From NCBI GenBank assembly GCA_046563655.1, contig CM102288.1, positions 372,001 to 436,000 of the forward strand: a DNA stretch of 64,000 nt, written 5' to 3'. The notes beneath the pieces were generated by a model, which was not told the origin of the DNA, searched no databases, and saw only the letters and a program-made list of their open reading frames with translations. Below, piece after piece: positions 32,156 through 54,268 of this stretch. How positions within the stretch are numbered: the first letter of the stretch is position 1; every line of letters begins with the position of its first letter. A program made the position numbers and the translations under genes. Source of the stretch: Yuukianura sp. NJ FZ-2021. Lineage: Eukaryota.

Positions 32156-35100
32156 CTATCCCAAGTTCTGACACTCGATCAAAAAGTTAAAATGACGAAG
32201 ATCATCCACGAATGCGTACAAGAGTATTGAAAACGTTGGCAAATCGATTCCTCCTTCGGGAATTGCTGAAGGAGCCCTCAGATCCTTAGTAGCAGAACGT
32301 TCCGATCTAAAATTGGCAGTTAAAGCATTCTTCTGTTCGATAGGAATACTTGGAAACGTAGTTTGAAAAAATTCGTCCAGAAATCTTGCGCAGAAGTGAT
32401 TGTAGTCCACTGATGCCAATTCATGCAATACTCGACACATTTCTTCACGGTAAAGGTCATGTGACTTTTGAACCAGAATGTGAAGGAAGACTCTCATAAA
32501 CTGGTGACACACATTTCCTGGAAGCTTGGAGTAAAAGTTGTGTTTCTCTTGTAGAATTGAAAGTGTGTTGAGATTGTAGCGAAATACTTCGAGATCTTGT
32601 TGCAGAAAGGAGTTTCCAATGCTTTGGATGATTTGATCCAATCGTTTTCTGATCATTTCCTGTTCAGCTTGAGCTTGTGGTGCAGGAGGAGACGCGACAG
32701 TTACTGCTGGAGTATGAAAAAAGTAGTTCCAGCGATAGTTGACAGTGTCTCGAATGAGGGCGAAGAATGGGATTTTGAGATCTGGAGTCGGCCGTTGCGA
32801 CAAGATTGGATAGATTTGGTCATAGCAGATTGAGAGCGTATCTCCAAGGAATTTCTTGAACGATGGAGATGGATCCTTCACAATGAACTGCAACATTCCT
32901 AGAAATCTAAAAATCAAAAACACAAAGTTAAAAAATATGGATGGAAAGATGGAAGTACTTTGGGAGTTTCCCACTCACTTTTCAATCACGACAGACGACG
33001 ATTCTGTTTCTTTGAGCAAGTCATTGATGATATTCGTACTTGAAAAGAGCGTCAGGAATCCATGGATTGTGCTTTCGAAAAACGGGGCTCCAGCTTGTTG
33101 TCGCAACACTTCCATTATTTTGGAAAATAAGCTCAAGATGGACTCAGATACTTCTGAAAAAGAAAATGAATTTTAAAAAAATTTTGAAAATCAACCTACC
33201 AATTTAAGTCTAAGATTAATCATGTTCTTACTAGGTTGACGAATGTAAGTGGCCGACAGAGAATGAAGAAACGGCACAACTTCCTTGAGGACATTCCAAC
33301 AGATTCTCTTTGAATTTGCATTTTCAGTGACTAGTAACTCCAGTTGATCTTGCAGAAGATTGAGATACACAATTACTGTCGCTGGATCAGCAACACTTCG
33401 TCCAAAATCTTCCAGGAGCAGTTTCATATAAGTTTCATAAAGATTCGTCCTTGTGTCCCATTCTTGCTGCGAAACACTTTGCCATGGTAGGAGTAGAACG
33501 GCACTCACTACTTTGTTCAAAATTCGGTAGATCTGGAAGTTACAAGATTAGGTCAATTATACACCAAAATTGCGGAATTTGAAAAACTTACTTCTGGAGT
33601 GGTCGTTTCCTTGAGCAAATGGATTTTCCGAATCAGCCCTTGAACAGAGCTGACTTGAAATACGAATTGTGTTCGGACAGAAGTGACCAGAGTTAGAAAA
33701 AAGTTCAAATTAGCAATGATAATTGAAGAGTCGATTTCTGCTTGGTGATCAAGCGTAAAGAACACAACTTCAGTCAGAATTCCAAGCAATTCGAAAAACA
33801 TTTGTTGGTCTTGCAAAGTTGATTCGCATAGGATTACTTCAGAATGAAACCTCTGGAGCCAGTATGTCCAGAGAGACACGGAAGAAATGATTTCACAGTT
33901 CCTGGAAAAAAAAAGTTCAAATCAACACAATAATCAGAATCACACTCTAACTTTTTTTTTTCGTTTTACATTTTGACAATAATGTCCGGATCTTTTACAA
34001 AGTAAAATCGTTGAGAGAAGTTGTACACTCCAACTAAACCCTGATACAGAGATTTCCCAAGCGTAACTTCCTGTGTGAACACTTCACTGTAAAAAACGTT
34101 GGCCATCCTATAATCAAAATAGTAAACACCAGTTTTCAATAATTTCCAGTAATGTTACAAGTTTGGAGCAATTTCAATTTGTACTTTACCTTCCAATGAT
34201 CTGCACCATAAAATGAAAATGTTCAATTTCCACTCTGTTGGTAATGTGCATCAATCGTTTGGATGTGGGGTCAAGCAGGGACTGGAGTGTAGCAAAAAAG
34301 CGACAGGACTCTGCCCATGTTGTCATCTGATTCAGAACACATGAAAACGTTAAGAAGATTTCAAAATGAATCCCTAACACTTTTGAATTGTACTTACAAG
34401 TGACTCCAGTGACTCGGTAGGCAACAACTCTCCTATTTTCACAAGAATGTCGATATTCCTAGCTAAACTAGGAGTTTCCACTTCATCATCCTGTAAAACA
34501 TAAAACAAAGTCAGATTTTGCCTTTTACAATCTAATAGCGTTCTTCCTTTCGAATTACCTCAACGTTTATGTACTCTTCTTCGGCAACTTGATACTTTGC
34601 TGTTGAGTGAGTGATACCATTGGCCAGAGCCAAAATCGGTTGTTTGTAAGTTTCAATATAGTCTTCTCTGTTCATCAGTTGGCTCACAATTGGCAATCGG
34701 GTACTAACGTGATCCAGAAGCCTTCCCCAAATGTCCAAACATTCATAGTAGAACGTAGTTTCCGTTTGACCAAACGTAAAAGGCAGAAGTAGAGAAAGGA
34801 AGGCCTTTGCATTTTGGTCATTGAACTGATTGAAGTGAGAGCCCGCAATCAGACACAAGAATTCAATTACTTTCTCCAAGTACCTGGAACAAAAAAAATA
34901 ATATGTAAATTCTGCACAGGATACTTAAGACGGAAGTGCTTACAAATGTGACAATGGAACGGTTGAGGAGCGATTAAGAATTTTGTTCAAAATCTCGATT
35001 CCAAAGTGGGTGACGCGGTGCATGTGCTTGGCAAATTCTTGAGGAATGTATTTCCGGTAGCAGATTTCGTTTAAAACACTGAGAGCCTTCATTGCATGAC

Positions 35101-36145
35101 TTAATTCCGGGGTCTAATTAAAATCAAAATAATTCAGTTAAGTTTCCAATTAAGTATTAGGTTCAACGGACATGCGTAACCTACGTATTCAATATTAGTG
35201 CCATTCTCAAAGTTAAGCACAGCATATTGGCAGAGAAGTTCCACAAAAGACTGTTGAAACGGAACTGTTTTGGGTTCTTGAGTTGCTTGTGACATATTTG
35301 GAAGTGACCCATCGAGTGTCACCCATGAAGTCAGATGAGCTGCGGCCTCTAATGCTAATGAAATGATTTCATCAACAGAATTGTTCTCAGAATGTGTCAC
35401 TCCACTTTGCTTGTGCTTAATCCCAGCATCCAGAATTGCTGAAAAAAAAAAACGATTGTGATTAGATGAAAAGACAAGACAGCATCTTGGGACAATTTTT
35501 AGTATGTTTCAACTCACCCTCCAAAGCACTGAACACGGTTGGGACTTGTTTTATAAGATTAATTTTCAGTTCTGTCTTTCGTTGGGTGCTCAGTTCGTCA
35601 GAAACGGAAGTCCATTCTTCTGAAATCGTCTTGATAAACCAAAGTCCAACTATCACCATCTCCTGAGACCTGGTTGCCTGGAAACCAAATGAAAGATTAG
35701 ATGAAGTACGGACGAAAGAAAAACGTTTGCATACCTCCAGAACATTAGAGAAGAAATCCGGTTGCTGTTGTGGCCAAGACAGCTTCCCAATGTCTGACAA
35801 TAATTTGATAACCTTATTTCTGATGAATGGAGGACACTTGACTGGAGAGGACAGTGATGATTTTTGTACGAGAAACGTCTGGAGAGCAGTCATAATTTCG
35901 GATTGATCTTGGTGTGACATCGAATACCACCGAGTTTTGATCGTATTCTCAAGTATAGATAGGCAGTACATGATAACAAATTCGCTGCCATCTGTTCGCA
36001 AACCGTAGAGAGCTTGTTTCCAAGATTCACGGTTTTTGAGAAACTGTGCCAAAACAATTTCTATCTCTCGTTTTCTATCGTTCGATGTCTGCGGAGCATA
36101 AAATTCTGATAGGCAACCTTCCAAACGTCGCTGGTTCTCCTCCAT
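32156..36145 (-). CDS. XPO6: Exportin-6 (importin-beta family nuclear actin exporter), multi-exon
   Basis: N-term MEENQRRLEGCLSEFYAPQTSNDRKREIEIVL..SWKQALYGL..YCLSILENTI..FIRNKVIKLLSDIGKLSWP; C-term FLQQDLEVFRYNL..LVQKSHDLYREE..ASVDY..DLPTF..FVDDLRHF. Both match exportin-6; intervening ORFs are bounded by GT-AG introns. Confidence 0.9.
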
Positions 36146-36199
36146 TTTTATGCTTCGACGTCCGTAGTGAGACGGGTATCGCAGAACTACCAAAAAGAC

Positions 36200-36620
36200 A
36201 TCAATGAACCATAAATTAGTTGTGCTAATTTAAACATAAAGTGAATTTTTTATTTCTTACCAATCAACGCAGAGTGAGAATGTGAATAATCCAAGATCAA
36301 ATACGATTTTCACACGAAGTATGTTGGTTGATTCAGATCCATTTTCCCCGAGAAACCCGAAATCTAATTGATTAATACGGAAACGATGGATATGATTGAA
36401 TTTGAAATTGAACAATCCATCAAATGAATGGATTCTCCTTAGGTAAATACTCAGCCAAAATCGGCAATATTCGCTCAAATACATTTACTACGCCTGCGTG
36501 TAGATTAAAAAGTGCCGATTTTTGGCACGCCTCAGCTGATTCGGACAAAAGTTTTGTTTTCATTTGATGTGCTAACAAAATTTTAAATTTGGAAGATTTG
36601 TTGAAGTTCTAATTTTTTTG
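36200..36620. promoter_or_regulatory. Bidirectional promoter / 5' leader region shared by XPO6 and NDUFA6
   Basis: Divergent start codons (36145 minus, 36629 plus) lie <0.5 kb apart. Confidence 0.6.
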
Positions 36621-37817: not shown

Positions 37818-40800
37818 TCAATTCCAGTAGTAGTCATCATCCATGAAGTAGTCGGCGGAGTACAGGGAAGGAAAGTCCATGGATTGGAACATCGGTGACC
37901 TCTGGTACGGTTCATGACGGGTCGAATTCTAAAAACAAACAGAAAAATCAACAGTCTTATCCAAAAACTTAGCTGCAATACTGCAAACTCCGAATTTTTT
38001 TTGATTAGTGACACCAAAAGCTGCTTTTAGTTTTTTGCTACTTCGTTTTAACGCTAAAAATCGCAAGTTTTAAGCAACAATTTGAAGTAAAATGAAAATT
38101 AAGAGTAAAAGCGAGAGTAAAGAAAGCAAAGCAAAGCACAATTTTGATTTGAAGGACAAGTTCCACAAAAAGCTGCTTACGTAAACATACATTTTTGTAA
38201 GTACAAATTCTATTCGAAGTCGAGGTGATTTTTAGCTGATTTGAAGGGCTACAAAGATTTTTAGAAAAGACGAATTTTTACAACTTTGAATTTGAGAGAG
38301 ACGACTTTCACTTTTGAACAGAAAAGAAAAATGAAATATAAAGAATGAATTAAATATATCAATAAAGTTATTTTAAATTATGAGTTTTCTTACAGCTTCA
38401 CTGACTCCGCGTGCAGCTGAAGTAGCACGTCCCCGAGCTCGTAATTTTGAAAGTGCCTGTTCCGCAATGTCCGCTCGTTCCTCTCCCTCTTCCAGCTCTG
38501 TTTGCGCTTTTCGGAATTTAGCCAAGTTGAGGGCAGCAATTTCCTCCTGGAACCAAAAAATATTTTAATTTTGACCAAAACTAAAACTTTACCTTTGACC
38601 TTCCACTTACAGCCTCCTCAATCTGCCTCTTGTAGCTCTTAATCTTATTCTGAAGCTTGTCGACCAGATCCTGCATTCTCTCGTGGTTCTTGTGATCCTC
38701 TTCAGCCTGGAACGTCAGTTCCTTGATACGGCGTTCTCCCTTGCGCAAGTTCTTCTGTGCATCGGCATGTCGTCGCTGTTCACCATCAAGTTCTTGCTCG
38801 ATCGCTCGAATGCGTTCTTCCAGCTTGGCAATCGTTCGACGACCGCCCTTCAGAGCCTCTCGCTCGGCTTCGTCCAGTCGAACTTGCAATTCCTTCATCT
38901 GGGCTTCAATGGCCTTTCGCATCTTCTCTTGTGCCTGGGCATGTTCCTGCTCAGCTCGTAACTCTGAAAGATGATTTAAAAAAGTTTTAAAAAAAAATTT
39001 GAAACTTGAAAATATGAACTTACCGTCAGCCAGTCGCGCAGCGTCGATCATTGCCTTCTTGGCCTTCTCTTCCGAGTTTCTGGCTTCGTTCACAATTTCC
39101 TCGAGGTCGGACTGCAAAATTCAGGAAATTAAGTTACTACTAATGTAATTAATCGATTAATAACAAAATTTTTGAAGTTTTCAATTAACTATTTACCTGT
39201 AAAGTTTGAAGTTCGCCTTCCAGCTTCCTCTTGGCAGCAGCCAGCGATCCAGCCTGAGCACTCAGTTCGTTGATCTGCTCGTGGGAGTCGGTAAGTTCAG
39301 CTTCGGCAGCACGGCGAGCCTTGTCAGCTTGCTCCAACAAAGTTCTGGACTCTTCAAGCTCATTGGCCAAGGCATTAGCTCGTCGCTCAGCCAATTGGAG
39401 TTGTTCTCTCGTTTCGTCCCGAGCTCGCTGTTCATCTTCCAACTGAGCCTGAATCTCCTTCAACTGTTGTTGGTATCTCTTGATGCTCTTCTGGGCCTCA
39501 GCATTAGCTTTGTTCGAATGGTCAAGGGCCACTTCCAGTTCATTAATGTCCGATTCAAGCTTCTTCTTCATGCGGAGTGCCTCGGCCTTTCCTTTGGCCT
39601 CTGCTTCCAAACTGGCTTGCATGGAGTCAAGGGCTCTCTGGTGATTCTTACGCGTGTTCTCAAACTCCTCCTCCTTCTCTTGGATACGACGATCAATTTC
39701 TTGGCGAACCTGAGACAATTCCAATTGGCCACGCAGAACTTTGTTCTCTTCTTGCTCAAGAGCGCTTTCAGCTTCCTCAAGAGCGGCTTGCAGCTCTTCC
39801 TTCTCAACTTCCAGTCGCTTCCTGGCCTTCTCCATCTCGTGGATGCTGCGACCTCCTTCACCGATTTGGTCCATGAGCTAAACAAATATTATTTTATTTA
39901 TAAATTATAATATATAATATAGAAATAATAGAATGTAGAGTAACTAACGTCTTTGATCTCATCTGCCAAGTTCTTGTTCTCGCGTCGGACAGAGTCGAGT
40001 TGTTCTTGACCTTCTTCGAAGACGGCCTTGAGTCGGAACAGTTCGGTGGAGTAGTTTCGGCATTCCTTCTGAGAAGCATCCAATTCACCAGCCAATTCGT
40101 CAACCTTCTGCTTCCATTCTGCAACGATCTTGTCAAAGTACTTCTGTTTCTTCTCAAGCTGAGCTGCAAGGGTCTGGGCTCTCTCAACCTCGAGCTGCAT
40201 GTCTTCCAGCTCCGTGGACAATCGCTGTTTGGTCTTCTCCAGCGCAAGGACTTTCTGGTTCAGCGATTCGATCGTCTCTTCTGCCTCGGTCAACCGAGCT
40301 TGCAGTTTTCGTCTGACATTGGAAAAAATGAAATAATTCTCATTAAATTCTCAGAAAAAAAAATCAGTTTTGATAAATTTTGAAAAACTTACTTCGATTC
40401 CTCCAGCTCTTCGACACGCTGGATGCCTTCGACTTCGTACTTGGTTCTCCACATTTGAGCGTCAGCGTTAGCCTTGGTGAGTTGTCGCTGCAGATCAGCT
40501 TTGGATTCAGACTCTTCGTCCAATTGTTCTCGGAGACCGTCCAAATCGTGCTCAACGTTTCGGAATTTACCGAGCAGACTTGCTCTCTCCCTGGCTTCTT
40601 CATCAGCAACTCGCTTCGTATCTTCCAACTGAGTAGCCAGAGTTACTTTCAATTTGTTCAATTGCGAAATCTGGCTCTCTGCATCTTCCAATTGGCGTGA
40701 GAGATCTCCATTCTCGGCTTCAAGTTTCTTCTTGCCAGAATCCATGTCACTGAGCGTGCGTGAAGCATCTTCATACTTGTGCTGAATCTCTCCGAGGTCA

Positions 40801-43800
40801 TACTGGAGACTCTTGTTCTGTTTTTCTTGTCCAGCCTTCTCATTGGTCAAATGATCCATAGCAGCTCGGATGTCATTCAATTCACCAGCCATTTGAGTTC
40901 GGTCTTTCTCTGCCTTGGCTTTCATCTTATTCAGAGTGTCAATTTGTTCAGCCATCTCTGCAACGGCGTCATTATGCTTCTTTCGGATGTTGGCCATGGC
41001 AGCTTCATGTTGAATGTTGGATTCCTCCACATCACGACGCAGTTTGGATAGTTCCACTTCCCGCTTCTTGTTGAGTTCAATTTGGGCAGCAGTGGCTCCG
41101 CCAGCTTCTTCAAGTCGCTCGTTGAGCTCTTCAAGCTCTCGCGAAAGATCAGCTTTTTGCTTCTCCGCTTTGGCTCTCGCCTGTCGTTCAGCCTCCAATT
41201 CCTCCTCCAATTCTTCAATTCGAGCCTGGTCAGAATATTTAACATTACTTAATCTTAAGCGAAACGTTGTAATAAGTTTCGTAAAATCATCAGTTTTCGA
41301 GAAAAAGTAGCGAAAATTTTGGAGCAACATAAATTTAAATTTCACAATTTCAGTCGTCTCAAAAAAACAATTACCTGCAACTCCTTGACTTGTTTCTGAA
41401 GTTTTCCAACTTGAGACTGCTCTTCTTCCAATTTGGAAGTGAGAGAAACAATTTCTTTGTCTTTTCGCGTAATTGTTTGTTCCAACTCCTTTTTGTTTCT
41501 CTCAAGATCAGAAACTGCTTCTTGGGTCAACTTGAGGTCACCTTCAATCTTCCTCTTGGATTTTTCAATATCACCTCGCAGCTTCTTCTCCCGCTCCAAA
41601 GAATCTTCGAGTTCATCCAGCGTCTGCTCAAGCTTCGCTTTCACTTTGTTCAAATGGTTCACTTTGTCTTCCGCCGCCTAAAAGAAATCCGTTTTCAAAA
41701 ATGTTCAAAAAACTTTTAGAAGTTTGAGTTTCTTGTTGATGTTTTACCTGTAAATCTTCAGCAGTCTTCTGATTGATCTCGGACATGTGCTTCTTCTCCT
41801 TGTTCAACTTGTTGATCAATTCATCTTGTCTAGCAATTTCATCATTCAAAGTGCGAATTTGATGATCTTTGGTAGCCTTGTCGGAATCCAGTTTGTTCAA
41901 AGACAATTCCAAATCTTCAGCATCTTTACGCAGTCCAGCCAACTCTTGCTCCATTTTCTTCTTTGACTGAAACAATTGGTTTCGCGCATCTTCCTCCGCC
42001 TGTAGTCGCTCTTGTGTATCCTGAAATAAACCAATTTTCATAAAAAATGGCAAAATTTTCCAAAATTGGGGAAGATTCTATTGTCAGAAAACTTATTTTC
42101 CTTTGATAATGTTTCCGAATTCAGAAAAAGTGAAAATGAAAAGTCTCCGGAATTTCAATTTTTGTCATTTGTCAACAATGACACGCTTCACACTTTCTCC
42201 AAACTTTCACTTTTGGTCAAAAGTGTCATTCAAGATCAATTTTTTCTTTTTTTCATTAAGTATTATTAGGTTTCCTTTTGATGAAATTTTATTCAAAAAA
42301 CGGAAAAAAAAAGAAAACGTGAGGAGACATTACCTCTCTGTTAAGATTAATTACATTTTCCAAACTTTCTCAAGTCAAAACCCTCTCAGAATAGAAATCA
42401 TGTCTTATTTTTTTTTTTAAAGTTGTGTTCTATTGAACTGTTAGTACAGTTCTGCAGCTGTTGGACACAAGATTAATGACGGAAGCTCCTACACTTACGC
42501 CCACAAAAGTATGAAGAGAAGCCTTCTTTTAAGAGACTAGACACCTAAAAACATATTTCTGTCGTCTATGACGCAGTTCGAGGCAGCTCTTCCTGCAGTT
42601 ACACCTTTCTCAACAAGTCAATCTCTCACATAAGGCTAAACATATTTACAAAAATTGGCACTTTCCAAGTCCTCGCCAAATTTTTGACACCTGAAATTAC
42701 CTGCAAAAAAAAGCTTTTTAGGGGTGAAAGTCCGACTTTCACCCCTAAAAAGCTTCTTTGCAGGAATTCCATAAAATTCTAAAGGGATTCCAAATCTGTA
42801 TGATGAAAAAAAGCTTCAAAAAACAAAAAACAAATAAAAAGTAATGCGAACTTTAAAATTTCAGTTCAATATTTCAAGTTCAACTTGTGATGTATCAAGG
42901 TTTGAGTTCCATAAATCTACTCTACAAAAAGTTTAACTTTTCAAAATTTTTGCAAATGTTTTCAACCAGCGGCACAGCGTGCAACGAAAAATTTTGGCTT
43001 CCGAAGTTTGGGCACAAAATTTTAAGTTTATAAGATTAAATTAAATGGAAATGAAAATTAATTTAAAAAAGAAAGGACTTACAGAAAGTTGAGATTCCAA
43101 GTCAGCTTTTTGCGTAGAAAGTTTAGAAATTTTCTCTTGGATGTCTCCCATGGCTCCTTTCTCCTGCTCCAATTGTGCTGCCAATGCATTCTTCTCCTCC
43201 AAAATTTTAGCACTCTTTTCCTGGATCTCCTTCTTGAGTGCCTCTTCCTTGGCGTAAGCCTCCTCAGCTTTCACTGCTTTCTCCTCCAATTTCTGTTTAA
43301 CCAAATCAACTTTATCCAAGTACTCCAAACCTCCACTCCCACTCAACTCAGCCACTTCACTCATTTCCAAAATCAATCAATTAACACTTAAGATTCTTAA
43401 GATTGAGCAATTAACACCTCTGCCTAGCCTCAATTCACACCTCTCCACTCCACCCTTCAAACCTATCGCCTAACCTAAAGCTACGCTCAAAGTGCCAATT
43501 TGTTCTAAAAACTGGAGCGTCGGTGTATCGCTTGTCAGATGACGCCTGCGCAGATATTTTGAAAATATGTTGCACAGTTTGTAAAACTCCTACATATGAT
43601 CACACACCTCAAGTTGTTCGGTTGTTCTACAAACCTTTTTCTAAACAAGTTTTAGAACGGCGGTGAAGGTGGTCCGCCTCCACCTTGCAACAGCATTTCT
43701 TTGAATTCCAAGATATTTTGGGGCGTGCTAAGCTATAAAGAGGGCGGAAACTGAAGATGAAATCACTGTTGAGAGAGGAAGGTGAAAAAATGGGAAGATG

Positions 43801-46800
43801 CGAATCTGAGGATTTTTAGAAAAAAGGAAAAAAGTATTTTTAAAATTTATGTGACATTTCCTTCATGTCTTCCCATTTTGAACACTTTGGTATTAAACAG
43901 TTCCTGGGTGGTGGGTTCATCAATAATGTTAGCAGAGCAGATGGAACTTCTAGCACAGACTTGGCACTCGTCTCTGTTCAAACAACATTTTTTGAACAAA
44001 AAAGAGGCAGAGTGAGACAGTTGAAAGAAAAAGTAGCATGTCTAATTCTGTTTTTTGGAGGAAAAAAGAGGTGAATTGGGCAGGTGGAGGACGGCAGTGA
44101 TGAACGCGTTTTGAAATTATTTTAAAAATACAAATTATTTAAAATAGAAATTTTAAAAATTGTCTACAAAAAGTTAATCTACAAAATATGTTTTTAAATT
44201 TTTTGCAGAAATGCTTTCTCCAAGATTTCAATTTTCAGCAATCATTCAGATTTCAAAAATAATTTTTCATTTTTTCCCCTTACCCTCATTTCATCTTCAA
44301 TCTTGGAAGCACTGAGAAGTGGTCTGACTTTCTGCCACAATTTGAACCACGACCACGTTCGGAGTTTCAAGTAGCCTCTCAAGCTGCGCTGAATTACTTG
44401 GAGAGCAATTCTGTACGAAATAATATATTATAATATATTTTATTTAATATATAATTAAAAAGTTGACGAACCGTTGATCTTGGAGACGCTTGTACTCCTT
44501 GAGGGTCAAGTAGTTGCGAATATTGGCTTGGAGCCATGTGAAGATCTGAGTGAGACGCTCGTCACGAACTTCTTCAAGTTGACCCAAAACTCCGGCACGG
44601 AAGAACACCTAAGCAAAAGGTCAAAGGTCAACACACTCCCACATTCTTAAAAGAGGCACTCAATCCATGCAAATACAAGCATTGTCAAGCATCCTTGACA
44701 ATTTAAAAAAAAAACTTACTGAAAAAAAAAACACAGCAGAAACGCAAAATCATAAATAAAAAAAATATCAGAGAAAGTCAAGAGAGAAAGCTCCAAGACC
44801 AACTTTTTCTAAATTGAAAATCAAATTAATTTTTTTTTTCAAAATCTGAAATTTTTTAGTAAAAGCGAAAAAAACACACTAAGAAGAGCAATTGTATAAA
44901 ATTGCCTTTGTGTTTCCCAGTCTGTATTGGTCATGTTCGAGGTTGATTGTTTCCAAAATGATTTTGGCAACTTCCTTCTCATCAGCAACTCCTTTAGCTT
45001 CTTTAGAAGCCAAGATTTTGTACCTTCAAGGGACACAAGGGATCATCACACATGACAAAACAAAACAAATTTTCAAAATTGAAAATTTTGAATCAAAAAA
45101 TTTTGAATTCAACTATTTTTTGAATTCCTAAAAACAGCAATCAAGTGTCGCAAAACTTGCGACATAAGAACAACACATTTCCTCAGTGCTTGAATTTCTC
45201 AAGTTTTTGGTTCGGAAAGACAGGACAAGAAAAAATCGGGGTTAAACCCGTTTTTTTTTTCAACCAAGAAAAAATTACAGAAAAACTCCGATTTTTTTTT
45301 TTGAAAGGGAAACGTGCCTTGGTGTGACCCAATCGAAATTTGTCTGCTTCCAATTCAATGGCATCAAAGCAAACTTGAGCCATTTTCTTGTCCTCTGTCT
45401 CTGCCTTCATTTTCTCAGGTGCTAAAATTAGATACCTTCAACCAAACCAACAAAAATTGGAAATTTTCGAATTTTCAATTTTTTGAATTAAATTACGAAT
45501 TTTCAAATTTCATGGTAGGTATTTTAAGCACTTCTCCAAGAGCATTACAGTGCATTGAATTAACTGTTTCTTTTTGCTACGCCCTTCAGTCTGCTTCGTT
45601 TTAATTAAAATGGCAGTTAAGTTTAGGAATTAAAAGTGAAAATTAAAATTTAGTAAATGTAGTTTTTCCTTACCTGTGTTTGAAGTCAGTGTAGACCATT
45701 CGGTTGGGAAATCCTTTGCGACAAATACGAATTCCTTCAAGTACACCGTTGCAAGTGAGCTGGTGCATCACCAAGTGGGAATCAATCAAACCTTGCAACA
45801 CAAAATTAAAACTTCCAATTAGAACAATTTTTAAACTAAATTTTTCCACAAAAATTGGTTTTTAACACAAATTGAATTTTGAAAGTGTGACTTACCGGCT
45901 GTTTTCAATTCATTAGGAATGATACAACGGATGAAATGAGGTGAAGTAGCTTGGAGAGTTGTCATCAAGTTGTTCAATTGTTCCTAAAACAGGATCAAAA
46001 ATTAGCAACTTTTTACAGAAAACTCAAAAAAAAAAATGCATCCGAAACATCAAACACTGAAAACAGTTATTTCGTCAATACATTAGTGTGAGATCATACA
46101 AAAATTAAAACACTGCGTCTGCCGCATAGTGTTAAACAAAAGCTAAGTTAATTGAAGTTAGTTATTATTAAATTCTTCACCTTGATCGTCCAATGTGAAG
46201 CTCAAAATTATTTGCGAAAATCTCAACTAAAAAATGAGGTCTGAAGAATTTTGTCTCCTTTTGTCCAAGTATTTTGGATTTTCAGATTTTCAAAATCTCA
46301 AATTCTTTCAAAAAAGTTTACTTGAAAGTAACAAGACCAAGGCAATAACGTTGTGCCCGGTAGAATGAAAATTGGGATTTGTTCCCTTCAAAACGACTTG
46401 TATGAAATGAATATGTACAAAGGTCAAAGGTCACGGAAAAGCATTCCTTGATTTACAAATCCAATGAAACAACGTTTTTGGACACTTTTAGTTTTTTTTA
46501 AGTTGTACCCGGTAGGATGAAGAGACTGTGGCAAAGCCTGAGCCCTTCTTTGCTCGTCCACCTGAATCAATTGTTTGTGTGTTAATTAAAGTCAAAAACT
46601 TAATTAAACTTAAAAATTCAATTAACATTTAACCCAGCCCATGAATTTTTAACATCGTGGACATGAATGAAACTCAACTGAAATCTGAAATGTAATTACC
46701 GAGAAACTTTTGCTTTAGGCTATTGCAACATTCGTTAGGAGGCTGAGAAGCAAGGCATTACGAAAATTCTGTTTTAAAAACGCGTTGTACTTTTTCAAAA

Positions 46801-49800
46801 AAAATTACCCTGTAGAGGGCTGATACTGTTTGAAATGCTGAGCCTTTGGCACGTTTTCCACCTTTTTTCAAAACAAACTCAATTAATTAAAAAAAAAAAT
46901 TCAAAAACCTCCACTAAAAATTTGAAAAATGGAGTGCCTCGCTGCCTGAAACAAAAAGTGAAGGTAAGGCCCAAGTTGACGAAACTTAGAAAAGGTAAAC
47001 TGCAAATCCGCGATTGCAGAATATGTGAATGACCCAGGTCAACAAGGTCATTGACCTCGTGACCTTTTGACCTCGACATACCTTTGCCACCACCGTCGTC
47101 CTTGCCACCGGACTGTCCAGGATGATCAATGAAGATTTCCTTGAGGAGTGCATTGTCGCCCTTCTTGAACTGGTCAACGACAGTGTCGTTGAGGGGGTCC
47201 TTGTTCTTTTCCAGCCAGTTCGAGATGTTGTACGGAACCTAAACACAGCAAAGGTCAGAGGTCAAAGGTCACAACATTTAAAAAAAACTTTAAAACTTAC
47301 AGTTCCAGCGTAGTGAACACAAGCAAAGTGAGCCTCAGCACATCCTGGTTTGGCGGGTTTCGGTTTCTGGAAGTTCGGTGACTTGCCCAAGTGATTGTTC
47401 TTCAACTTTTCAGCGAAAGTCTGGTCAGTGGCTTTGGGAAACATAGATTCTTCTTCAAGGATGGAGAAGATACCCATGGGCTGTGTTTCAAAATTTTGAA
47501 AAAATGAAAAATTTCATTTGAACCAATATATTGGTTCAAATATTGCAATATTATGAAAAAACTGACCTTCTCCATAAGTTCAATACAAGCTTGCAAGTCC
47601 ATGCCGAAATCCATGAAGACCCAGTCAATACCTTCTCGCTTGTACTCTTCTTGCTCCAGAACGAACATGTGATGGTTGAAAAATTGTTGAAGTTTTTCAT
47701 TAGTAAAGTTGATACACAGTTGTTCAAAACCGTTGAACTGCAAATCAAAAATAACGTTTCAAAAATCCAGTTGTGAGAAGAAAAACAAGTTTTTTTTTGA
47801 AAACTTACATCAAAAATTTCAAATCCAGCAATATCCAGGACCCCAATAAAGTGTTGTCGTTTTTGCTTTGTGTCAAGAGTTTCGTTGGCCTTCTTGACGA
47901 GCCACTTGAACAGTCGGTCGAACATGCCCTTGCCCAAGGCACCAACGGAGTATGCGCACTACACAACCAGAATCGCATTATTTAAAAAAAATGTCCCATT
48001 TTTAACATTTTTGAAAATTTTGAAAATGTCGTAAAGTTTACCTGGTCCTTGTTTCGTCCTTGCGTCACAAATTCGTTACCGACTTTGATTCTCGGTTTGA
48101 GCAAATTTTTGAATAGATCCTCTGGGACAACTCCCAAAAGCTTTCCAACGCGCTCACCTTCCTAAAAACAAAACACATTTTTTAAAATTTGGAAAAATGT
48201 AAAATATGAACTTTTTTTTTTGAAATTCGTAAATTTTGGAAAACTTACCGCGGTACCGTCAGCTTCTGCCTGTTCTTCTCTTCCCCTTTGCTTGAACTTC
48301 ATACCACCCATGTGCATAACCGCAGCCGTGATCTTGTAGATGTCCGCCTTCTCTTGCTTTGAAAATCCCAAAATGTCAAAGGCTTCCTGATTTTTTTAGA
48401 AAAACAAAGTTAAAATTTAAATTTAATTACTAGGAGTAGGCAACAATTGAGAGCAATTCAAGCCAGAAAATCAAACACGACTTGAAAACGATAACTTGGG
48501 TTAGCTCAAATAATCAAAACAGCGTTTTTGTTGAAAATTGTAACTGGCGCTGTGTTTAAGCAACGAAAATTGTGCTGCGCAGTGTTTTCATCAAGCGTCC
48601 AAACTTACATCAGTGACCACAAACTCTTCCCCGTCATCAACTCCAGGAATGGTCGTTTTTCCTTGGGACACGAAGTAGTAGTCATTGATGTTGTTGCTCA
48701 GCAAGCACATTTCTGTGTAATTCCAAATTAATTCAACACAATTCAAAACACACACTCTTAATTAATTCAACTGAAACAGATTAGAATCACGCGATTACTA
48801 TCGTTCTAAAAATCTAAAAATCAAGACTAAACACACTGACGACCGATTTTCAAAATCTGCAATGGTCGTGCTTGTCAATTCAAACAAAACCAAAATGGGA
48901 GAAATCGAACTCGGGAAAGCGAAACCACTTTTTCGTTTCTGGGTTACTCACATCCGTAGCAACAAATTCTTCACCATCATCGACTCCAGGGATGGACGTT
49001 TTTCCTTGGGACACGTAGTAGTAGTCTGTGATGTTGTTACTCAACAGACACATCTCTGAGGTTGGCACAAACAAACGTTGAACAAACGTATTTCAAAACT
49101 TTATAAACGTTTTACCCTAACTGGAACCTAGTTTAACTATGACTGGCTACAAGTATCACAGTTTAGTATAAGTGCACTTGAGTTCTTACCCTTGACACCC
49201 TTGACGGCTCCTGACATGATCTGGTAGAAGATGTGGTAAGAACGTTCTAGCGGCTGTTGAGAAATGACACGAGCCTTCTCCAGCAGATCTACGTATTACA
49301 AAACGTTCAAAGTACGATCAAAAATGTTACGTTTGTGAATACCAACATAAAATTTTAGCAAAGGTTTCTTACAAGTCTCAATGTCAGCTCCAGCCAATTT
49401 TCCAGTCATACCAAAATGGATACGGATGAATTTACCCTATACGAGAGGAAACATCGATCAGCCACATACAAGCTGTTTGACATGACGGATCAAATCAATC
49501 AAATGCTTGAATCAAAACTTACAAAACGGGACGAGTTGTCGTTACGTGTTGTTTTGGCGTTACCGAAGGCTTCCAGAACAGGCTACAAAGAACAAAATAA
49601 CGGTAAATTTAGTAACGTTCTTTCATCAGTAAAAACGATCGGCCAACGCAAGACTTTTATGGAATGTATCAAATCATGTAAACTTACGTTGGTCTGGACG
49701 ACTTGATCTTCCAAGGAACCCTACAAAAAGCATTGGTATCGTTTTAGTTACAGAAATTAATCAGTAATTGACTTAAAAGTTAAAAAAATCACCTTTCCGG

Positions 49801-52800: not shown

Positions 52801-54268
52801 TGAAATTTTAAAACAAATATTTGAAAGGAAGTGAAAGATTCTTTGAACTTTTTTGTCCTCTCATCATAGATCCTTTTTTTTTCATAGTATTTCTATAATA
52901 CAAAAATGTTTAGGATTTCAAAATCTGGGTTTTGAAATTGACCCATCAAGGTTAGGGTTAACTTTTTGAAGTAAATAACCTAAAGTAATCGAACTTCGAC
53001 AACGAAGACGACATTGCTATGTACACAGTACACATCAAGTGATTTTTCCAAAAACCAATTCAAAATACTACAAAAACCGGTGTCTCTTTAGTTGACACTT
53101 TGATGATTTGTGCTTATAAGGACCGTTCTGTAGGCCAAAGCATTACAAAAGCCGTGCAAAAAGTTTCAGAAAAAGTTGAAAATGTTAGATTTATTAGTTA
53201 GTTGTGTTGGTTTTGATCATGTTGAGAAGGTAATTTGGAAAACAAAATGAAAATGCTGAGGAATTTTTAAATTTTAAATTAAATTATTATAATGTTAATG
53301 TTAGTTTTTGTGCTTAGGGTGTCACGGTTTTGTATTAGCCCAACGTTAGTGTTTGAAAAACGGGAAATGCAAATAGGAAAACAAAAAAAAAGTTTTTGAA
53401 AAGTGTGAAATTTAAAAAATAATAGAATGCTTAGCTGCGTTGCGGCTCCTGCGGTGTTAACTTACGTAGATTAGTTTTGTGTAATAACGTTGTTTCAAGT
53501 TATGAAGTACGGAAGCATCATTGAGGTAGGTGAGGTTGCTCATATCCTCACATTTTTCGTACTTCGGTGGATTCACTTGTGATACCAGTTCTTTCTTATA
53601 CGTCTTCTCCTGTTGAAGGTCAAAAGGTCAAAAATAGAAACAAGAGGTCAACTCACGTAGATTAGCCTAGCGTAGTAACGCTGTTTGAGATTGTGCAACA
53701 CCGAGGCGTCGCTCAAGTACGTCATGTCAGCCATGTCCTCAATTTTCTCAAATTTAGGCGGATTCACTTGGGCTAGCAAATCCTTCTTTACGGTCTTCTC
53801 CTACATTCCACCACGTTCAAAGTTTCAAAAATCCATTTCAAAAATATCAAAAAATCAAAATTTTTAAAATGAACCCGGAACTGGAACTTCAAAATCAATT
53901 AAAAATTGAGCAAAAATCCAAAGAGAAAAAAGTAAACGGCGGATAAATATCGCACTAATTCATATAAGTATAGATAATGCACCATGAAATCTCAAATTAT
54001 GAAACTTTTTAATTTTTTTTTTGAAATTTTTTTTTTTTAGAAATTTTTGAAATTTTCGTACCTCTCCGCCGGGAATTCCGACGGTGACGAGATCTCCCTT
54101 CGTTCCTCGAATTTCTCCGAGGACGAATCCTTCCTTGTCGTCCGGAACCCAGCAAGCTTTCTTGGCATCGTACGGCTTCGTCTGGTCAATCCGCTTCTGT
54201 TCCAACGACACGAACAGGTATTCCGTCGGATCCGGATCCGGACCGACCGACTTCTTCTCTATGACCAT
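37818..54268 (-). CDS. Mhc: Muscle myosin II heavy chain, complete gene with mutually exclusive exon clusters
   Basis: ATG 54268 ([19 protein letters not shown]). Constitutive exons 54268-54062, 52170-52014, 50356-50329, 49889-49793 (GESGAGKT), 49720-49688, 49582-49523 (NDNSSRF), 49436-49373, 49288-49190, 48386-48249, 48161-48042, 47958-47809 (DIAGFE), 47737-47567, 47480-47301, 47238-47082, 45983-45896, 45791-45674, 44608-44472, 44410-44284, 43292-43083, 42020-41748, 41677-41375, 41225-40393, 40312-39949, 39877-39197, 39111-39024, 38963-38611, 38546-38394, 37928-37818. Phases checked. Confidence 0.98.
38181..38248 (-). CDS. Mhc: Mhc cassette tailpiece exon (alternative C-terminus [12 protein letters not shown])
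   Basis: tctttgtag| acceptor, in-frame TAG at 38212-38210, |gtaagc donor. Positionally analogous to Drosophila exon 18. Confidence 0.8.
42700..42764. repeat. Near-perfect palindrome/hairpin in an Mhc rod intron
   Basis: aagctttttaggggtgaaagtc-c-gactttcacccctaaaaagctt (22-bp perfect arms), extended by cctgcaaa..tttgcagg. Confidence 0.9.
43293..43364 (-). CDS. Candidate unique N-terminus of a headless myosin-rod isoform
   Basis: Intronic ATG at 43364 gives [24 protein letters not shown], contiguous and in frame with the rod exon starting KLEEKAVK. Confidence 0.6.
44906..45023 (-). CDS. Mhc: Mhc converter exon variant b (mutually exclusive)
   Basis: 118 nt, [39 protein letters not shown]; ttgaag acceptor and GC donor (aag|gcaatt). 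Confidence 0.93.
45318..45435 (-). CDS. Mhc: Mhc converter exon variant a (mutually exclusive)
   Basis: 118 nt, [39 protein letters not shown]; ttgaag acceptor and GC donor (aag|gcacgt). Confidence 0.93.
46357..46385 (-). CDS. Mhc: Candidate third, shortened Mhc loop-2 exon ([10 protein letters not shown])
   Basis: 29 nt, correct phase 1->0, ttgaag acceptor, GC donor. Its 3' end plus donor (tcattctaccgg|gcacaac) is a 17/19 copy of variant b (tcatcctaccgg|gtacaac). Confidence 0.5.
46509..46561 (-). CDS. Mhc: Mhc loop-2 exon variant b
   Basis: 53 nt, [18 protein letters not shown]; ttcag| acceptor and |gtacaa donor. Confidence 0.93.
46809..46861 (-). CDS. Mhc: Mhc loop-2 exon variant a
   Basis: 53 nt, [18 protein letters not shown]; aaaag| acceptor and |gtaatt donor. 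Confidence 0.93.
48609..48712 (-). CDS. Mhc: Mhc exon-7-type variant b
   Basis: 104 nt, [35 protein letters not shown]. Confidence 0.95.
48952..49055 (-). CDS. Mhc: Mhc exon-7-type variant a
   Basis: 104 nt, [35 protein letters not shown]. Confidence 0.95.
53466..53609 (-). CDS. Mhc: Mhc exon-3-type variant b
   Basis: 144 nt, [48 protein letters not shown]. Confidence 0.95.
53657..53800 (-). CDS. Mhc: Mhc exon-3-type variant a
   Basis: 144 nt, [48 protein letters not shown]. Confidence 0.95.

Follow-up and report, generated by a model that had tools for sequence, protein, structure and literature searches.

A probable alternative coding start in the head/rod intron of an arthropod-type muscle myosin heavy chain gene, predicting a headless myosin with a lineage-specific leader

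Whether the intron between the head and the rod of a muscle myosin heavy chain gene also holds the start of a second, headless product is the question raised by this locus. The window, i.e., the whole 64-kb stretch of DNA that was analyzed, carries an arthropod-type muscle myosin heavy chain (Mhc) gene on its minus strand. Myosin_N, Myosin_head, and Myosin_tail_1 were all detected in this gene by domain search, the last on the rod with E = 6.7e-47, which places it in class II muscle myosins, and the best PDB matches of its product were insect and tarantula muscle myosins. The 1948-aa relative P0001 was collinear with the gene by tblastn, with its residues 1-1935 distributed over positions 54268-38406. 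The last head/neck exon (44284..44410, minus strand) ends in ...IEDEMR and is followed by its GT donor (44283-44282). The first rod exon, R1 (43083..43292, minus strand), comprises 70 codons of S2 ending in ...ESQLS between the acceptor aaacag and the donor gtaagt, and aligned with residues 849-918 of PDB 8u95_A, ‘Myosin heavy chain, isoform U’. The head/rod intron between these exons (43293..44283, minus strand), estimated at about 1 kb in the earlier note, measured 991 nt and is in phase 0 at both ends. The rod exons after R1 span 38373..42020 on the same strand and are located at 42020-41748, 41677-41375, 41225-40393, 40312-39949, 39877-39197, 39111-39024, 38963-38611, and 38546-38373.

The open frame that the earlier note had described at the end of this intron was present, running from an ATG directly into R1 with no gap. 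This leader (43293..43364, minus strand) consists of 24 intronic codons in frame with R1 at 43292, and its ATG at 43364-43362 has a purine at -3. An in-frame TGA (43377..43379, minus strand) closes the frame five codons upstream, so that no ATG of this open frame precedes 43364. If transcription began within the intron, the 72 nt before R1 would become coding and the exon at 44284..44410 would be left out. Joining the leader and R1 to the remaining rod exons (nine exons in total) gave 1116 codons with zero internal stops, a mass of 128 kDa, and a pI of 5.15, with the C-terminal end modelled by read-through, where a downstream tailpiece exon is possible instead. The predicted product contains the complete rod and neither the motor nor the IQ region.

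The 72 nt before R1 are probably a conserved alternative coding start, from which an Mrp-type headless myosin of ~1116 aa with a lineage-specific leader would be made. Its transcript would start at a putative promoter within the head/rod intron of the muscle Mhc gene, and translation would begin at ATG 43364. The resulting protein (~1116 aa, 128 kDa) would carry an acidic leader of 24 residues in front of the complete S2 and LMM rod and would lack both the motor and the light-chain-binding neck, an arrangement as in Drosophila Mrp. In an AF2 model (8-row alignment, mean pLDDT 89), a helix spanned residues 12 to 93, running unbroken from the leader (residues 12-24) into the rod, and confidence was low for residues 1-11. 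The variable, Gly/Ser/acidic N-terminal half of the leader (residues 1-11) is probably disordered, and the conserved C-terminal half is predicted to extend the S2 helix. Through its rod, the headless protein may enter thick filaments by co-assembly and reduce their head density, as is reportedly the case for Drosophila Mrp in the work of Standiford in 1997 and Polyak in 2003.

The sequences establish the identity of the gene and the frame, show that one relative has kept the start, the frame, and leader residues, and show that acidic M-started extensions recur widely at the R1 acceptor only. A leader frame broken in relatives had been named beforehand as evidence against the headless product, and in P0004, the closest relative found, the frame was unbroken. 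The Met is also retained there, as are most leader residues including an 11-residue stretch, with one 3-codon indel; the leader of P0004 forms the first 27 residues of the fragment, compared to 24 in the window. The local alignment score of the two leaders was 66; shuffles averaged 17.1 (sd 3.9) and 0 of 1000 reached 66, while 0 of 300 shuffles reached the window-P0004 value when the best score against all 100 leaders was taken. For P0005, P0020, P0011, P0030, P0017, and P0012, the score with the window leader was reached by 77, 52, 203, 298, 350, and 499 of 1000 shuffles, respectively. Among the leaders compared, significant similarity to the window leader is thereby limited, on sequence scores, to P0004. 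Leaders of other pairs also resembled each other: P0004 and P0011 (3 of 1000 shuffles), P0004 and P0020 (4 of 1000), and P0011-P0030, P0030-P0017, P0030-P0020, and P0030-P0012 (0 of 1000 each), the taxa in these transitive pairs having R1 identities to the window of 49-69%.

An unlikely alternative, though the one that survives best, is a conserved non-coding element at the acceptor, such as a splicing enhancer, a branch-site region, or a transcriptional enhancer, with an incidental ATG and frame and no rod-only protein. The best-conserved part of the leader adjoins the acceptor, and its G-rich, C-poor composition extends upstream beyond the stop codon, where the sequence is clearly non-coding. 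By itself, the leader ORF is not beyond chance inside the window, as 6 of 69 other acceptor/frame combinations of the Mhc gene had an extension that begins with ATG and spans 24 codons or more, and 8 of 69 control combinations had a frame open for at least 28 codons, some of them extending into upstream exons. The codon-usage LLR of the leader (+5.9) was intermediate between the intron mean of -13.6 and the exon mean of +13.0 and was reached by 13.9% of stop-free intron windows, and all leader-bearing relatives are genomic ORF calls only. Against such an element, P0004 retains the Met and the frame despite its 3-codon indel, and a purine-rich tract stands where a normal 3' splice-site signal would be rich in pyrimidines. 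The absence of a pyrimidine tract at the R1 acceptor, claimed in the earlier note, was borne out by a longest pyrimidine run of 3. The pyrimidine content in the 20 nt before the NAG was 0.40, joint lowest among the 24 acceptors of the Mhc gene, which had a mean of 0.59 (sd 0.11). This low content is expected if coding constrains the sequence; on the proposed reading, a constitutive acceptor can do without a pyrimidine tract because the sequence would have a second, coding role. An Rfam search of 42000-45500 returned no match above noise in the head/rod intron, only a sub-threshold snoR125 (E 0.76), and no repeat family accounting for the leader was found.

Less probable again is a chance ORF at an ordinary intron end, with the match in P0004 due to recent common ancestry and no selection. 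Frames of equal length in the 6 of 69 controls are consistent with this, and P0160, apparently from the same contig as P0004, was 97% identical to the window over the second rod exon, R2, so that the organism of P0004 may be fairly close. The median 5' extension and the median 3' read-through among the matches listed were also equal at 27 aa, and extension length was discarded as a test. However, the window and P0004 differ at 21% of R1 residues (79% identity), and the intron-derived flanks of P0160 (LISISITQ; VGPHIPSQQTQ...) were by eye unlike those of the window. The read-through of P0004 past R1 stops after two codons, while the window reads on.

An alternative 3' splice site joining part of the leader to the ...IEDEMR exon, which would add residues to full-length myosin where head and rod meet, is highly improbable: with both intron ends in phase 0, an in-frame AG within the leader would keep the frame and GAG codons supply AG at codon boundaries, but the TGA at 43379-43377 restricts usable sites to purine-rich leader sites, none with a pyrimidine tract, the full-length relatives P0001 and P0003 carry no insertion at this junction, leaders of the lengths found in relatives, often Pro-rich, would break the coiled coil, and the conserved initiating Met would be left unexplained.

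The case for the headless product had also been built on promoter-like sequence upstream of the leader, and this argument failed. The GC-richer stretch does exist, with a GC content of 0.42-0.435 over 43300-43800 compared to 0.22-0.36 elsewhere in the head/rod and neighbouring introns. The E-boxes (cagatg at 43536 and 43938, catatg at 43593) are present, but their frequency is at chance, with 5 CANNTG in the head/rod intron against 3.2 ± 1.7 in shuffles. Similarly, the NRF-1/EWG-like cgcctgcgca is present at 43543 but offers only a TGCGCA half-site, and the NRF-1 12-mer consensus had no match at 43543 with up to 2 mismatches allowed. The MEF2 consensus occurred 0 times in the head/rod intron and 13 times in the whole window (11.2 expected), and a scan for Inr, TATA, DPE, and DRE consensus strings found no TATA box or DPE in the intron. 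The sole exact Inr consensus there, TCAGTT (43749..43754, minus strand), is located 388 nt upstream of the ATG without a TATA or DPE partner, and any transcript begun at it would contain upstream ATGs at 43696 and 43595. A 228-nt stretch free of ATG (43365..43592, minus strand), whose coding strand is rich in G and poor in C, adjoins the leader ATG. From its own composition, 5.3 ATGs were expected and 0 observed, and ATG-to-ATG gaps of at least 228 nt made up 45 of 879 on the minus strand (5.1%), which is modestly unusual. This stretch, which includes an Inr-like CCAGTT (43515) with A+1 at 43513 and without a DPE, is a candidate 5' UTR or proximal promoter.

M-started extensions of at least 6 aa ending in ...Q at the R1 acceptor were found in 100 of 157 R1-homologous fragments among the matches listed, a set that comprised the best 150 of 155 matches at E ≤ 1e-3 plus fragments from other searches, and in which the ‘M’ at the start of gene-caller fragments may represent GTG or TTG. 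These acidic extensions, the Mrp architecture, and the conserved frame and Met in P0004 favor the rod-only protein with a 24-aa leader that the earlier note had put forward, while the promoter motifs do not. Leader lengths ranged from 6 to 157 aa among the matches listed, often with Pro-rich sequence. A net negative charge was seen in 88 of 95 distinct leaders and in 8 of 95 downstream intron read-throughs among the matches listed. In the same matches, D+E accounted for 20.3% of leader residues and 5.1% of the 3' read-throughs of the same fragments, and F+I+L+Y+W+C for 15.7 and 39%, respectively. What the 95 listed leaders have in common is protein-like (acidic, hydrophilic, and M-started) with no fixed nucleotide motif, which argues against a non-coding element. 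The N-terminal motifs kept within leader sub-families (MGDT..., MGE.D..., and MA..HVSEWDG...) point the same way, since they occur at varying distances from the acceptor and therefore require in-frame indels.

The control exon R2 bears on the chance reading, as 57 of its 82 matches had no usable upstream start, beginning inside the exon or differing in structure. The ...Q boundary was found in 21 of 82 matches, and 13 of these 21 carried extensions of at least 6 aa, which were hydrophobic and not acidic (D+E 6.9%, net negative in 4 of 13). As judged from these sequences, R2 shows no acidic extensions comparable to those at R1, and the recurrence is specific to the R1 acceptor. All 100 leader-bearing fragments among the matches listed run past the donor (VS, VR, and similar) and are therefore genomic ORF calls, not mRNAs; a transcript-derived relative with the leader spliced to R2 did not occur among the R1 matches listed. 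In 47 fragments whose flanks reached at least 20 aa on either side, a length-matched test set the 18 aa before the acceptor against the 18 aa beyond the donor and gave no extra conservation on the leader side below 80% exon identity. At 70-80% identity, scores of at least 25 were reached by 5 (leader) and 7 (post-donor) of 368 pairs. Single-linkage clustering of leaders at scores of at least 35 placed 56 sequences in one group, which was rejected as a sign of homology because the group is probably inflated by low-complexity Pro/Ala/Glu content. More tentatively, and at a little under an even chance, the acidic-leader headless myosin may be no peculiarity of flies but an old product made widely from arthropod muscle Mhc genes. 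Nearly every sampled gene with the head/rod intron would then have an M-started, net-negative, and fast-evolving extension, with the lineage of the window carrying a compact form of 24-27 aa whose C-terminal half extends the S2 helix.

To our knowledge, Mrp has been characterized in Drosophila only, and its physiological function is not yet well understood. The leader of Drosophila Mrp is about 77 aa long. The proposed product is like it in being a muscle Mhc gene product with the whole rod, no head, and a start at the same exon, and fragments with an 8u95-type R1 (for example, P0072, P0074, and P0103) bear long Pro/Ala/Glu-rich extensions at the same acceptor. Unlike the Drosophila leader, that of the window has 24 aa and is Gly/Ser/acidic with a helical conserved half, not Pro/Ala-rich. 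Shuffle comparison detected no sequence similarity between it and the Pro/Ala-rich leaders of the 8u95-type fragments, and N-terminal homology to Drosophila Mrp was not found. Promoter, expression, and filament incorporation have been demonstrated for Drosophila Mrp and are predicted for the window product.

In the literature searched, Mrp outside flies was discussed only by Kollmar & Hatje 2014 (PMC3912159). In that paper, the alternative start of Drosophila Mrp extends, on its 5' side, the first exon that follows the motor and the light-chain-binding region, and Mrp-type N-termini are described as not conserved even between Drosophila and mosquitoes and judged not reliably predictable. Extensions of 16 aa in Tribolium and 101 aa in Dendroctonus are reported there (PMC3912159), which correspond to the window leader in position and in kind of genomic-sequence prediction. 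They differ from it in that the window leader is conserved in a relative and its class is consistently acidic and specific to R1. Because acidic leaders recur widely, the 2014 view of these N-termini as unconserved and unpredictable needs qualification. If the wider reading is true, the leader sequence drifts while its existence, frame, and charge persist, the published view needs revision, and arthropods in general would tune their muscles by thick-filament ‘dilution’ with rod-only myosin. A conserved leader in another lineage provides concrete targets in the N-terminal peptide, the ATG, and the intronic region upstream. Together with a signature (acidic, M-started, specific to the R1 acceptor) common to ~100 divergent loci among the matches listed, these offer a test of headless myosin as a general regulator of thick-filament head density in the muscles of arthropods.

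Catchin, or myorod (Yamada et al. 2000, cited in PMC3912159), is likewise a headless muscle Mhc product with a unique N-terminus, and is located on thick filaments (PMC12040844). The earlier note had treated it as analogous, but the position differs: according to PMC3912159, catchin starts ~260 residues further into the rod than Mrp and therefore joins the rod much further downstream than the window leader. Its long N-terminal exon is spliced well inside the rod, whereas the window leader is contiguous with R1 at the equivalent of 8u95 residue 849. Stand-alone rod-only genes include Lottia Mhc8 (PMC3912159) and the shrimp ‘headless myosin’ LvMYH4 (PMC6537884). Both encode a thick-filament-type rod without a motor, and as separate genes they differ from the internal start inside a full-length Mhc gene that is predicted in the window.

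The minus strand of the window carries a class II muscle myosin heavy chain gene (Mhc). Residues 1-1935 of the full-length relative P0001 (1948 aa) were matched by tblastn from 54268 down to 38406, and Myosin_N, Myosin_head, and Myosin_tail_1 were detected by Pfam in the tested Mhc exons. With P0001 as query, tblastn also identified paired alternative exons at three sites of this strand, 53466-53800, 48597-49059, and 44897-45437, where both members of each tandem pair matched one P0001 stretch (residues 71-118, 296-362, and 726-792, respectively). These pairs resemble the clusters of mutually exclusive exons typical of arthropod Mhc genes. The last neck exon has its 3' end at 44284 (...KIEDEMR) and is followed, again on the minus strand, by the head/rod intron of 991 nt (44283-43293) and the first rod exon, R1 (43292-43083). 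The best PDB alignment of R1 was to residues 849-918 of 8u95_A, “Myosin heavy chain, isoform U”, followed by Lethocerus-type and tarantula myosins.

The finding is real as sequence. The leader described by the earlier note exists as a 24-codon frame at the 3' end of the intron (43364-43293, minus strand), which opens with ATG 43364, is contiguous with R1, and is closed by a TGA at 43379-43377, five codons 5' of the ATG. The acceptor without a pyrimidine tract and the raised GC were likewise confirmed: pyrimidine content was 0.40, joint lowest among 24 Mhc acceptors (mean 0.59, sd 0.11), and GC was 0.42-0.435 across 43300-43800, with other intron sequence lower. Taken from the window alone, the features of the leader are not beyond chance. 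ATG-started extensions of at least 24 codons occurred in 6 of 69 other acceptor/frame combinations of Mhc. The 228 nt directly 5' of the leader ATG are ATG-free where composition predicts about 5.3, and gaps of at least this length account for 5.1% of ATG gaps on the same strand. The codon-usage log-likelihood was +5.9 for the leader, -13.6 for introns, and +13.0 for exons, and 13.9% of stop-free intron windows reach the score of the leader. A tract rich in G and poor in C, with GGAGTGGAG-like repeats (43365-43480, minus strand; plus-strand GC skew -0.6 to -0.69), extends from 5' of the TGA as far as the first leader half. Owing to this overlap, low-complexity sequence may be the origin of the leader's N-terminal half.

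Two lines of sequence comparison support a coding leader: its conservation in a single relative and a signature found across the whole class of leaders. The relative, P0004, is a 99-aa fragment recovered by word-index search with leader plus R1 as query; it starts with a 27-residue leader followed by an R1 of 79% identity to that of the window. The two leaders aligned with a score of 66 (shuffle mean 17.1, sd 3.9), which was reached by none of 1000 shuffles and by none of 300 shuffles compared against all leaders. The Met residues are aligned, and the sole gap amounts to three codons. P0160, a fragment from the same source and probably the same contig as P0004, served as neutral control. Over the second rod exon, R2, P0160 and the window share 97% identity. 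The intron-derived flanks of P0160, judged by eye, are unlike those of the window. The read-through of P0004 past R1 halts after two codons, whereas that of the window continues open. Conservation between the window and the genome of P0004 thus shows at the leader and is absent from the other intron flanks compared. Further leaders were linked to P0004 by pairs in which few shuffles scored as high, with 3 of 1000 for P0004-P0011, 4 of 1000 for P0004-P0020, and 0 of 1000 each for P0011-P0030, P0030-P0017, P0030-P0020, and P0030-P0012. Compared directly with these linked leaders, the window leader showed no significant similarity (52 to 499 of 1000 shuffles as high).

An exhaustive HMMER search for R1 homologues yielded 155 matches at E ≤ 1e-3, the best 150 of which entered the analysis; together with fragments found earlier, this gave 157 proteins, none longer than 500 aa, for classification. 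Among the matches listed, 100 of the 157 had an M-started extension of at least 6 aa that ended in ...Q exactly at the R1 acceptor (6-157 aa, median 27), where the gene-caller “M” is possibly GTG or TTG. The intron was absent at the start of R1, with contiguous neck sequence, in 27; a start within the exon or another exon structure was found in 20, and 10 belonged to another class. The 95 distinct leaders among the matches listed were acidic, with D+E at 20.3% versus 5.1% in the 3' read-throughs of the same fragments, F+I+L+Y+W+C at 15.7 versus 39%, and a net negative charge in 88 versus 8 of 95, respectively. N-terminal motifs (MGDT..., MGE.D..., and MA..HVSEWDG...) are kept within sub-families at varying distance from the acceptor, which requires in-frame indels. 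R2 was used as negative control exon with 82 matches, of which 57 begin within the exon or have another structure and 21 show the ...Q boundary. The 13 of these 21 that are extended by at least 6 aa were hydrophobic (D+E 6.9%, F+I+L+Y+W+C 40.6%), and 4 of the 13 were net negative. The contrast between R1 and R2 is large, despite differing search engines that limit the comparison. In P0054, P0111, P0114, and P0131, the intron apparently lies about 9 residues deeper in the rod exon (...FQ then EIEEA...), and their upstream extensions resemble ordinary, non-acidic hydrophobic intron translation, as an informal and unquantified control.

Other results cut the other way. Leaders were no longer than 3' read-throughs, with medians of 27 aa for both among the matches listed. 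When 18 aa before the acceptor were compared with 18 aa after the donor, no excess similarity was found below 80% exon identity; at 70-80%, 5 versus 7 of 368 pairs scored at least 25. This fits the statement of Kollmar & Hatje, in a passage of PMC3912159, that Mrp-type N-termini (Mrp, the Drosophila myosin rod protein, a headless Mhc product) are poorly conserved. With full-length leaders, high-scoring pairs numbered 80 versus 1 for read-throughs, of 1094 at 70-80% exon identity, an excess partly due to leaders that are longer and of low complexity. Since all 100 fragments with a leader among the matches listed read through the donor, none is a transcript.

The leader most likely belongs to an Mrp-type isoform, for which transcription would start inside the head/rod intron and translation at ATG 43364, giving a product of the leader plus the entire rod. 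Nine exons joined by coordinates gave 1116 stop-free codons (128 kDa, pI 5.15), in which the C-terminal end is a read-through model. In the last rod exon, a GTAAGA donor-like site lies within 38373-38400 (minus strand), shortly before the read-through stop (...SEA|gtaaga), and P0001 ends in a different 13-aa tail, which suggests an alternative C-terminal tailpiece exon farther downstream. In an AF2 model (8-row alignment A1, mean pLDDT 89), residues 12-93 form a single helix and confidence is low for residues 1-11; on this model S2 would be lengthened by the conserved leader half and capped by the variable half as a flexible acidic segment. By analogy with Drosophila, the rod would co-assemble into thick filaments and lower their head density.

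The promoter argument of the earlier note, built on E-boxes, an NRF-1-like site, and promoter-like sequence, fails. CANNTG occurred five times in the head/rod intron versus 3.2 ± 1.7 in shuffles. The sequence cgcctgcgca is present at 43543, but provides the TGCGCA half-site only, as the NRF-1 12-mer consensus was unmatched there with up to two mismatches allowed. The motif scan of the intron found no MEF2 consensus and two Inr-like sites, an exact TCAGTT at 43754 and CCAGTT at 43515, neither accompanied by a TATA or DPE.

The predicted rod-only product would fall in a known kind, Mrp. In the literature searched for “myosin rod protein” outside Drosophila, PMC3912159 alone was found to treat the subject. 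For Drosophila Mrp it describes an alternative start that lengthens, on the 5' side, the first exon past the motor and light-chain-binding region. Its relevant passages also give two beetles possible extensions at the same place, 16 and 101 residues long, and hold that Mrp-type N-termini are unconserved and such isoforms not reliably predictable without mRNA data. They also place the rod junction of catchin, the molluscan rod-only product, about 260 residues further on, behind a long conserved N-terminal exon, which makes catchin analogous to the putative window product, not equivalent. Stand-alone rod-only genes occur in Lottia (PMC3912159) and shrimp (PMC6537884).

A 20-nt inverted repeat of 85% complementarity (44268-44287 and 43773-43792) would allow the region around the 5' splice site of the head/rod intron to pair with intron sequence 475 nt farther downstream; a rough estimate puts the chance expectation at about one pair of this kind in 3.5 kb. 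The R1/R2 intron contains a near-perfect palindromic hairpin at 42694-42772, with arms at 42707-42732 and 42734-42759 that are 96% complementary. Its 86-nt fold reached -51.3 kcal/mol (z -10.2), and none of 200 shuffles was as stable. Vertebrate mir-208 and mir-499 are located in myosin heavy chain introns. Both strands of the hairpin matched several miRNA families in Rfam, always below threshold; mir-208 ranked first with 27 bits (E 0.0033) against a gathering score of 56.4. A perfect stem, however, resembles a palindromic repeat or MITE more closely than a miRNA precursor. A neighbouring gene lies downstream of Mhc on the minus strand, at 32159-36229, where the ORF at 35465-36229 matches Pfam Xpo1 (exportin 1-like) with an E of 1.7e-10. 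No Pfam match was obtained for other long ORFs of the window, among them a possible C2H2 zinc-finger region (22.4-23.3 kb, plus strand).
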